A stretch of DNA of 64,000 bases from Phyllobates terribilis (Eukaryota), in the NCBI RefSeq assembly GCF_046119375.1, contig NW_027362762.1:188046001-188110000 (forward strand), written 5' to 3'. How positions within the stretch are numbered: the stretch's first letter is position 1; every line of letters starts with the position of its first letter. Below the pieces are notes generated by a model. The model saw only the letters and a list, made by a program, of their open reading frames with translations. It had not been told where the DNA came from and searched no databases. This document shows, piece after piece, positions 1-52,300 of this stretch. Both the position numbers and the translations under genes were made by a program.

Positions 1-64
1 TCTGACGGGACAGTTCATGACACAGGTCCGAGAGTGAGGGAGCTTGGGTGCCACCGGGTTCCAT
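1..64 (-). CDS. Start of gag-like ORF of a Ty3/Gypsy LTR retrotransposon (runs off window edge)
   Basis: ATG at 64-62 lies 13 nt after the LTR end; open frame MEPGGTQAPSLSDLCHELSRQ to the window edge; position and style fit sushi-type gag starts. Confidence 0.55.
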   Translation of the reverse strand, partial: MEPGGTQAPSLSDLCHELSRQ

Positions 65-159
65 GGCCCGAGCAAACTGTAACGGGTCTGGGAGGCGGAA
101 CCTCTGAGCTACTATACAAGGGGGCGGTCCTTGTAAGGGAGCGGGTGGCGACCAGGGAA

Positions 160-340
160 GACGGGCAGGCAGTCACAGCAGGTGACTGGGACAGTCTCTG
201 GGTGAACGGGCTGGAGGTCACGGCAAGTGACCGGGGTAGTCTCTGGATGAACGGGCAGGAGGTCACGGCAAGTGACCGGGGCAGTCTCTGGATGAACGGG
301 CAGGAGGTCACGGCAAGTGACCGGGGCAGTCTCTGGGTAA
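160..340. repeat. 45-bp tandem repeat (about 4 copies) inside the LTR
   Basis: GGCAAGTGACCGGGG-type anchor recurs at 177, 222, 267, 312. Confidence 0.9.
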
Positions 341-364
341 AGGGTAGGTACGACCTGTGATGGC

Positions 365-690
365 TGAGCCTCCAGGTAGGCTAGCAGGCAGATGGTAGAT
401 GTGTGCTCCCAGGTGAGCAAGTGAGAGTCTCTGGATAAACGGGTGGTCACAGCATGTGACGGCGGAGCCTCCAGGTAGGCCAACAGACAGGCAGCAGATG
501 AGCGCTCCCAGGTGAGCGGGCAGGAGTCTCTGGAATGGCAGGTGGTCACAGCACGTGACGGCGGAGCCTCCAGGCAGGCCAACAGACAGGCAGCAGATGA
601 GAGCCCCCAGGCGAGCGGGCAGGAGTCTCTGGAATGGCAGGTGGTCACAGCACGTGACGGCGGAGCCTCCAGGCAGGCTAGCAGGCAGGT
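365..690. repeat. 99-bp tandem repeat (about 3.3 copies) inside the LTR
   Basis: GAGCCTCCAGG anchor recurs at 365, 464, 563, 662. Confidence 0.9.
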
Positions 691-1169
691 AGGAGGAATG
701 TCAGGCAGGAAACAGACAGCAAACTGGCAGGTTTCTGGCAAGTAACTGGCAGGTAACTGGCAACGGGACCTGAGGGCTGAAGCAGAGTAGTGAACAGTGC
801 AACAACATTGCTCGGGCACCTCCATTTTGGAGGAGGTGCCTTATATATGGTGAAGTCCTCCGGCCATTGGCCGGGGACTCCTTAGGACGGCGCGCACGGC
901 CCCTTTAAGAGGGAGGGAGCGCGCGCGCGCGCCCTAAGCACAGTGGCCGGGAAGGAGCGCGCGCTGCCAGCAGAGCGGGAGGAGGACGCCGGGCTCGGAG
1001 CAGAGGGGTGAGGGGAACAGCGTCCCTGCCTAGCAGAGGGCAGGGACGCCGGCGCTACAAAGGGGTCTTGCTACTGTACACTATGCCACCCCACACCATA
1101 ATCTTAGGAATAGGACTGGTGTAGCATTCCCTTGTGAAAGCCTCTTCTTGGTTTTGCCCAAATGGTCTT

Positions 1170-12179: not shown

Positions 12180-18338
<6,159 letters not shown>

Positions 18339-49300: not shown

Positions 49301-52300
49301 GGTCAAGGCATCGTCCGGAGGCCGTGGAAGAAGACCCACAGCCATCTGTAAGTAACCCTCAACCTGGTGCTAGTCACGCCCAACCTAGCACCAGTGCCCC
49401 CGTGTGGACCCCCGTCCCTGAAAATTACGCTCCACGGATTCCTGATTTCCTTCCCCAATCAGGAATCCAGTTTGAGACAGCAAACCTCAGTGAAATAGAC
49501 TTTTTCAAAGTCTATTTCTCTGAGGCCATTGTCAGTCTCATGGTGGAGCAGACTAACATTTACGCCCAACAATTTTTGTCTGCAAACCCAAATTCAATGT
49601 TTTCTACTTGGAGTCCCGTTGACTCAGTAGAAATGTTGAAATATTGGGGACTGGTACTTCACATGGGGATTGTGAAGAAACCAGAAATCCGTCAATACTG
49701 GAGTACCGATATTTTATATCAAACTCCAGTGTTCGGAATGGTGATGACCCGCAAAAGATTTGAGGTCATTCACAAATTTTTACATTTCAGGGATAACGCG
49801 GACAGCCTTCCCCGTGATGACCCGAATTTTGACAGACTGTTCAAAATTCGTCCGGTCATAGAACACTTCAGCAATAAGTTTGCTGAAGTGTACGTTCCCC
49901 AAAGGGAAATTTCTGTGGATGAATCCCTCATCCACTTCAAAGGGAGGCTTCAATTCCGACAATACCTGCCCAGTAAGAGGGCCAGGTACGGAATAAAGCT
50001 CTACAAGCTGTGCGAGAGTGCCTCAGGGTACACTCACAGCTTTAGAGTTTACGAAGGAAAGGATTCGAGGATTCAGCCCCCAGAATGTCCACCTGCTCTG
50101 AAGGTAAGTGGGAAAATAGTGTGGGATTTGATCCGCCCACTGCTTGATAAAGGTTACCATCTATACGTTGATAACTTTTATACAAGCATTCCCCTATTTC
50201 AGTCCCTCTCTGCCAGAGCTACCGCCGCTTGCGGTACTGTGCGCAGAACCCAGAGGGGTCTCCCTTTGACGCTAATTGAGCAGCTTCTCCCAAAGGGTGA
50301 TAGCCGAGCTCAATGTAGCGGCAACATGGTTGTGGTGAAGTACAAAGACAAAAGGGACGTCTTTTTCTTGACCACAATCCATGGTCCCGGCATCACGGCC
50401 ACCAACGTTAGAGGTACCCCAGCACCGGTCCGCAAACCGGACTGTGCCCTGGAGTACAACAAGCACATGGGGGGAGTTGATCTTTCTGATCAAGTCCTCC
50501 AGCCCTACAGTGCGATGAGGAAGGCGAAAGTCTGGTATAAAAAACTGGCCGTGCACATCGTTCAAATGGCACTGTATAACGCATACGTGCTGTCATGATG
50601 TGCAGGCCAGACCACCAACACCTTCCTCAACTTCCAGGAGGCGGTGATAAAGGCCCTGATTTTTAGAAGCGAAGAAGAAGCGGGCCCCAGCACCCCTGGA
50701 ACTCGAGTCTCCCGTGTGGTACCAGGGCAACATTTTCCTGGTGAGGTCACGGTAAGAAAAAGGTGCCGGGTCTGCCACAAAAGGGGGATAAGAAAGGTCA
50801 CCCGTTTCCAATGTGAAACGTGTCCTGATAAACCGGGACTGTGTTTGAATGAATGCTACAAAATTCATCACATGTCCCCGGACTAAACACATCCTGACCT
50901 TCCCTACAGAACTCACCCACACTAGCATGACATGCGAAACATCACACACACACACACAACAACCTCACGTACACTACAACACAACACCAACCTATGTCAG
51001 GTTGGTGTGTGTGTTGTAGTGTATGTGAGGTTGTTTGTGTGTGTGTGTGTGGTGTATACACCACACCACACACCAAACTCACATACACTACATCTAGATA
51101 AGTTCCCTGGGGGGTCTAGTTTCCAAAATGGGGTCACTTGTGGGGGAGCTCCAATGTTTAGACACACAGAGGCTCTACAAACGCAACATGGTTCCAATTT
51201 GTTAGCGGACACCATGTCGTGTTTGGAGAGGTCCTGTGTGCCTAAACATTGGAGCTCCCCCACAACTGACCCCATTTTGGAAACTAGACCCCTCAAGGCA
51301 CCTATCTAGATGCATAGTGAGCACTTGGAACCCCCAAGTGCTTCACAAATTGATTTGTAAAAATGAAAAAGTATTTTTTTTCCACTTTTCATTTTTACGA
51401 ATCAATTTGTGAAGCACCTGGGGGTTCCAACTGTTCACTATGCATCTAGATAGGTGCCTTGGGGGGTCTAGTTTCCAAAATGGGGTCACTTGTGGGGGAG
51501 CTCCAATGTTTAGGCACACAGGACCTCTCCAAAAGCATCATGGTGTCCGCTAACAATTTGAGCCGAAATTGTTAGCGGACACCATGTTGCGTTTGGAGAG
51601 GTCCTGTGTGCCTAAACATTGGAGCTCCACCACAAGTGACCCCATTTTGGAAACTAGACCCCCCAAGGCACCTATCTAGATGCATAGTGAGCACTTGGAA
51701 CCCCCAAGTGCTTCACAAATTGATTCGTAAAAATGAAAAAGTGGAAAAAAAAATACTTTTTCATTTTTACGGATTAATTTATGAAGCACCTGGGGGTTCC
51801 AAGTGCTCACTATGCATCTAGGTAGGTGCCTTGGGGGGTCTAGTTTCCAAAATGGGGTCACTTGTGGTGGAGCTCCAATGTTTAGGCACACAGGACCTCT
51901 CCAAACGCAACATGGTGTCCGCTAACAATTTCGGCTCAAATTGTTAGCGGACACCATGATGCGTTTGGAGAGGTCCTGTGTGCCTAAACATTGGAGCTAC
52001 CCCACAAGTGACCCCATTTTGGAAACTAGACCCCCAAAGGCACCTATCTAGATGCATAGTGAGCACTTGGAACCCCCAAGTGCTTCACAAATTGATCTGT
52101 GAAAACGAAAAAGTACTTTTTTTTTTACAAAAATTTTCTTTTAGCCTAAATTTTTTAATTTTCACATAGGTAACAGGATAAAATGCATCCTAAAATTTGT
52201 TGGGCAATTTCTCCTGAGTACACCGACACCTAATATGTGGTCAGAAACCACTGGTTGGGCGCATGGCAGGGCTCAGACTGGAAGGAGCGCAATTTGACTT

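Follow-up and report, generated by a model that had tools for sequence, protein, structure and literature searches.

The window, i.e. the whole 64,000-nucleotide stretch of Phyllobates terribilis DNA that was analysed, begins inside an LTR retrotransposon that lies on the minus strand, and its first 1064 bases hold the 5' end of that element. Read along the minus strand, the LTR extends from 1059 to 78 (TGT...ACA) and is followed by a spacer (77-76), a 10-mer (75-66), a single C (65) and the gag ATG (64). The gag and pol genes and the 3' LTR are located upstream of the window start, in the neighbouring genome stretch. The relevant features within the window are:

1..64, minus strand: start of gag (the gag of this copy is frameshifted further on; pol is open)
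65..65, minus strand: C right after the PBS, unpaired with the T at -1 (from 42 of 47 loci and the junction classes)
66..75, minus strand: PBS, complement of 817-808, without TGG (inverted-pair search and sequence reading)
76..77, minus strand: spacer of 2 nt between LTR end and PBS (best pairing at offset 2 in an offset scan)
78..1059, minus strand: 5' LTR, 982 bp; the element is a full-length chromodomain Gypsy (partner LTR 99.0% identical, matching TSD)
161..336, minus strand: tandem repeat, 45 bp, 3.9 copies, in the primer-PBS interval
357..689, minus strand: tandem repeat, 99 bp, 3.4 copies, in the same interval
704..762, minus strand: tandem repeat, 11 bp, in the same interval
808..817, minus strand: predicted self-primer, the first 10 nt of the transcript (complementarity and cross-family comparison)
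815..840, minus strand: hairpin of 9 bp between TATA box and predicted start, overlapping the first 3 bases of the primer
841..847, minus strand: TATA box, 30 nt ahead of the primer site (from sequence; a TATA-like motif is found elsewhere too)
1060..1064, minus strand: target-site duplication (TSD), 5 bp (sequence comparison)

With 1168 codons, pol forms an open frame encoding protease, RT, RNase H and integrase (in the order PR-RT-RH-IN), with a chromodomain at the integrase's C-terminal end (PF00385, 43 bits at a cut-off of 25.1, residues 1041-1087). Gag carries a CCHC motif and, in the translations, the gag and pol frames overlap, a criterion taken from published passages on members of the Tf1/sushi group outside fission yeast. 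A PPT precedes the 3' LTR, which is 99.0% identical to the 5' LTR over 982 nt, the pair lying inside the 5-bp TSD; this 3' LTR, outside the window, and the TSD define the LTR ends independently. Among named proteins the closest comes from Phyllobates terribilis itself (99% identical), and the exact LTR-end/PBS/ATG junction occurs at 16,057 genomic sites. The element is a young, very abundant chromodomain Gypsy retrotransposon. A quick tree built from 37 RT-RNase H rows, none of them a named Tf1 or sushi-ichi, grouped it with Xenopus and teleost chromodomain Gypsy proteins; of the chromovirus/sushi placement suggested in an earlier, sequence-only reading of this DNA, the chromodomain Gypsy part with fish and frog relatives stands, and the named sushi part lies outside that tree. 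In the PDB the best named match was Ty3, and the 60 matches listed included neither a Tf1 nor a sushi RT. At the level of sequence, the tested features of the Tf1/sushi group, as taken from published descriptions, are present, except for the Sushi LTR model (PMC3601003): the frog LTR has no AATAAA near its 3' end, and the TGTYANR 5' motif fits only in its TGT. Since that model is described as trained mainly on zebrafish LTRs, the mismatch weighs little on group membership.

Some further repeats were encountered at and beyond this locus. In this copy the PPT and the first bases of the 3' LTR are tandemly duplicated (locus L001, 4700-4625, minus strand). L002 contains two solo LTRs (9934-8888 and 7045-6608, minus strand) that belong to related families and are each flanked by a matching 5-bp TSD, and a tandem repeat with a 372-bp unit (2.5 copies, 92% matches) occupies 51194-52115 of the window. 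The LTR-PBS junction of an old element recurs every ~66-93 kb at G000:C12:220.9-223.3 Mb, which suggests a large tandem duplication array.

The inverted-pair search confirmed the arrangement on which the sequence-only reading was built: 66-75, 2 nt past the LTR end, and 808-817 form an inverted pair of 10 nt that is 100% complementary, with 732 nt between the arms and a distance of 740 nt between 817 and the LTR end, and 817 lies 30 nt past the first T of TATATAA, which starts at 847. TGG is absent from the 22 nt that follow the LTR at the PBS position, as had also been claimed. An exact 10-mer match anywhere in the LTR arose in 8 of 20,000 dinucleotide shuffles. Across the 64-kb window the 10-mer matches only these two sites at one mismatch or less, a count that is uninformative alone because the shuffle expectation is 2.4. 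In this copy's 3' LTR, position 4 of the primer is changed from C to T. The hairpin at 815..840, present only in this family and close subfamilies, is predicted by the folding model to hide the primer in RNAs with an upstream start. We rejected a general start-site switch by a U3 hairpin: pairing dropped for upstream starts in this family and subfamily B, and not in most others.

For a comparison across families, we gathered elements by means of profiles for gag and for the chromodomain and a pattern for the junction; of 61 ten-kb loci, 22 yielded both an RT and an LTR pair whose ends are clear, and the 39 that lacked one of these went unscored. Among the 19 elements with an LTR pair and a matching TSD, 18 pair at 9 or more of the 10 positions at offset 2, the single exception being an old copy (LTR identity 88%); three further loci with unmatched TSDs have fewer than 9 pairs within the called LTR. 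Fourteen representatives, hand-picked as well preserved, carry 12 different primers and have 138 of 140 possible Watson-Crick pairs. Columns 1-2 are invariant and columns 3-10 show two or three pair types each, so double-sided changes are found in 8 of the 10 columns. No label shuffle out of 200,000 reached the score of the 14, a count that is not a probability because the representatives were hand-chosen and share ancestry. To remove the circularity of choosing a best match, every upstream region was scanned with every PBS: perfect 10/10 matches were obtained for the own PBS in 12 of the 14, for foreign PBSs in 0 of 178 and for control 10-mers in 0 of 140, with the peak at offset 2. The paired site always begins T/G-C, and a regular expression finds a TATA-like motif 29-32 nt ahead of it in 10 of the 14. 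In a pattern-selected set of 50 unusual PBSs, which is biased towards mutated, old and chance matches, about 25 had their best match at the TATA-linked site when read by eye.

Within the family, 30 close copies were collected, of which 29 were scored, three having the LTR start outside the locus; 20 of 26 pair at 10/10 and the other six carry one uncompensated transition. Eight of 11 further loci pair at 10/10, and the remaining three have no gag match. A solo LTR in L002 carries a different base at primer position 6, and a genome search for the PBS variant predicted from it returned nine matches. Four of these lie in a distinct gag subfamily (two of them neighbours) and all four have the compensating LTR base, four of the eight scorable matches are main-family members changed in the PBS only, and the ninth has no TATA in range. 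The covariation of PBS and LTR segments expected from the sequence-only reading is thus borne out by the paired elements, by the representatives and by the four compensated copies.

The interval between primer and PBS varies freely. In 53 family copies the primer lies 615-1020 nt from the LTR end, against 200-880 nt for other families; the long loop is no special feature but a spacer of variable length. The sequence-only reading had described a loop of about 740 nt of repeat-expanded LTR; both the length and the tandem repeats hold for this copy, and any special status of that length does not. Neither AATAAA nor a common variant of it is found between the primer and the LTR end (window 78-817) in this family, whose R-U5 thus has no canonical poly(A) signal.

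The predicted probability of primer-PBS pairing in this copy is 0.92 with 65 nt of sequence after the PBS and 0.10 with 40 nt, and it exceeds 0.4 in six of the 14 representatives. A consistent three-duplex 'pretzel' was not recovered among the 14, the central duplex appearing in some folds and the flanking helices differing; thermodynamic folding is not counted as support here. Four runs of poly(A) RNA from a related species each gave 46-156 matching reads, mostly 80-95% alike and crossing the TATA region, and a pile-up of read ends at the predicted start was not seen in them.

The edge of the PBS itself is a site of frequent rearrangement. Position -1 of the LTR is T in 47 of 47 loci, whereas the PBS is followed by C in 42 of them and by A in 3, and pairing stops sharply at the predicted +1. 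We searched the genome for copies in which three non-reference bases follow directly after the PBS, and read all matches. This returned 68 matches in 26 junction types, against 5 matches (three junction types) for a control of the same design placed 13 nt downstream and 3 for a control inside the PBS; these are raw matches with uncounted denominators, and the controls are blind to 1-nt insertions and one of them also to 2-nt insertions. With the classes of the 1-nt and 2-nt types set aside (29 matches dropped), the comparison is 39 against 5 and 3. One extra C accounts for 17 of the 68 variants. Another 12 continue from the PBS into 1-4 bases complementary to U3 from -1, two extra bases in 10 of them, and this two-base class occupies at least six separate places on the gag tree. 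In six variants PBS + C is followed by the complement of U3 from -2, over 13 nt in five and over the whole of U3 in one, in which the inverted U3 directly follows PBS + C, runs back to the LTR start and gives way to a normal leader (L267, 2909-8000). On the gag tree, the five copies with a short fold-back lie scattered, each with a nearest neighbour that has no fold-back. In the remaining variants PBS + C is joined to sites 40 to ~4200 nt downstream or back to the LTR end, or the next few bases after the PBS are replaced.

LTR variants that have captured spacer + PBS + C, with a new ACA end, were found at L197/L198, L219/L220, L229, L243, L252/L253, L257 and L262; those at L243 and L257 are single LTRs with the captured PBS + C and perfect 5-bp TSDs.

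The scars fit a plus-strand strong stop at PBS + 1, and a stop at that position would in turn imply that the primer is 10 nt long and that its 5' end is fixed and probably capped. Plus-strand strong-stop DNA would then end with the C at 65, for which the cap is a possible template. Reverse transcriptases can add a C opposite an mRNA cap. Cap copying appears the simplest source of the C after the PBS, with an inherited C as the alternative: it is also the element's inherited base, and is missing in one old family. Because the C mismatches U3 at -1, the extra C predates the fold-back. In our reading of the junctions, strong-stop DNA sometimes folds back onto the primer site within the same strand, or is misplaced during the second transfer.

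Taken together, we consider it likely (probability about 0.85) that the element primes reverse transcription with ten bases of its own RNA and not with a tRNA, so that the self-priming family proposed in the sequence-only reading is, on covariation and PBS-edge scars, very probably real. Transcription likely starts at G 817, as the TATA spacing, the T/G start context and the sharp end of the pairing suggest. The first 10 nt would then pair with the PBS across a loop of freely variable length, and the element's RNase H may cut after about nt 10 and free a 3' end, by analogy with what has been shown for Tf1. Plus-strand synthesis would likely copy the retained primer to its 5' end and add one C, probably opposite the cap, leaving strong-stop DNA that ends at PBS + C. 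Through such copying the primer sequence would overwrite the PBS every cycle, and this would account for the joint changes at the two sites. The full version of this scheme, i.e. a vertebrate sushi-type element with a capped 10-nt self-primer, in which the cap is reverse-transcribed, the C is a cap fossil, the scars map strong stop and start to the base, and priming tolerates loops with as much as 1 kb of unstable repeats, we rate at slightly better than even.

The same ten bases are also present in the 3' LTR of the RNA, and in a second RNA, and priming from there instead of from the capped 5' end is the most serious alternative, if an improbable one. Covariation cannot separate the two LTR copies, the twelve edge variants that run into U3-complementary bases are what a U3-attached primer would give, and the R-U5 is devoid of a canonical poly(A) signal. 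A U3-attached primer nevertheless predicts an A after the PBS, and the 47 loci have C in 42 and A in only 3; moreover, the fold-back copies start with a C that mismatches U3 at -1, and the site is found at TATA + 30 in unrelated LTR sequences. The 5' end of another RNA molecule is compatible with these same data. The inverted repeat could also be a by-product, kept alike by DNA fold-back or conversion during replication and with no role in priming, and fold-back at this repeat does occur. We regard this as very unlikely: it leaves the element without a primer site and the fixed offset of 2 and the TATA spacing without explanation, and the fold-back itself requires a DNA 3' end at the PBS edge, the product of copying a 10-nt primer.

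A host tRNA or tRNA fragment as the primer, with the LTR match secondary, is equally hard to maintain. Priming by half-tRNAs is described for copia elements (PMC6317226), and our tRNA comparison took in 20 sequences from an Rfam tRNA search, namely tRNA-Lys(TTT) and one Glu gene only; within that Lys and Glu set, the longest match to the PBS is 6 nt, so that the expectation of a PBS unlike tRNA 3' ends holds as far as the comparison reaches. None of the 14 representatives has TGG at the PBS, and their 12 different PBSs each track their own LTR. Priming by tRNAs typically uses 18 nt, whereas the end marked by the rearrangements lies 11 nt inside the site. A tRNA-type site does exist close by, in a non-chromovirus Gypsy remnant ~12 kb away with three tandem TGG-type PBS copies (L002, 6471-6340, minus strand); we take this remnant to resemble Gmr1-like elements and its PBS to resemble a Leu tRNA.

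As for tRNA-Lys(TTT), the U3/R junction (window 808-823) resembles its PBS over ~12 bases, in this family only and with a terminal base that would mismatch, which is probably chance. Large arrays of tRNA-Lys(TTT)-like genes, with many CpG-type changes, lie at G000:C1:816.9-817.9 Mb (period ~1050 bp) and at C11:574.0-575.8 Mb.

A single genome supplies both compensatory changes across many families and scars of replication by which the length and the 5' edge of the primer are fixed. Counting of scars should be applicable to any family of high copy number and could distinguish priming from the 5' end from priming from the 3' end. Silencing by tRNA 3' fragments has been described for ERVs (PMC7472051), and a tRNA-free primer would, as we infer, exempt this family, with its 16,000 or more copies, from that mechanism.

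Self-priming as such is not a new idea. In the published accounts consulted, Tf1 pairs the first 11 bases of its RNA with the PBS, after which RNase H cuts (PMC7175516), half of its cDNA retains a PBS copy at the 3' end (PMC11042837), and start-site choice is described for Tf2 (PMC5341516). Self-priming together with the pretzel is given as common to the Tf1/sushi group (bioRxiv 2022.12.06.519325), self-primers are described in yeast and vertebrates (PMC6317226), and the process is implicated from fungi to vertebrates (PMC4600332); for vertebrates it was proposed by Butler et al. 2001, as cited in PMC6317226 and bioRxiv 2022.12.06.519325. A literature search turned up neither a test of whether a vertebrate element self-primes nor a report of a cap being copied into a PBS; earlier primary Tf1/sushi papers may contain part of this.

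By these descriptions the frog element would share with Tf1/Tf2 of Schizosaccharomyces pombe, Tj1 and Tosmo1-3 a (predicted) RNA 5' end complementary to the PBS, a reliance on the start site, cDNA that retains a PBS copy at its 3' end and non-templated additions by RT. It differs from Tf1 in having 10 bp instead of 11, a loop of 0.2-1.0 kb with tandem repeats and a pretzel not recovered by folding; moreover, cleavage and priming are shown experimentally for Tf1, whereas here they are predicted from sequence. The plant elements Tcn1 and TAR likewise have self-priming predicted from sequence, as do 12% of surveyed plant elements, in other hosts and, for TAR, in a copia element (PMC6317226). Also close in description is the vertebrate Tf1/sushi group (GyDB V-clade: Sushi-ichi, Amn), which likewise has a chromodomain integrase, a CCHC gag, overlapping gag/pol and a PBS complementary to its own LTR, and the 3' end of the frog LTR fits the Sushi motif CNTNACA (PMC3601003). 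The V-clade is compared here by description, and in those accounts vertebrate self-priming has so far been implicated or predicted, whereas in the frog family covariation over 12 primers and genomic scars were counted. Self-priming is the expected state for the Tf1/sushi group; added here are the count of covarying pairs and the scars in the genome by which the edge of the primer is fixed.
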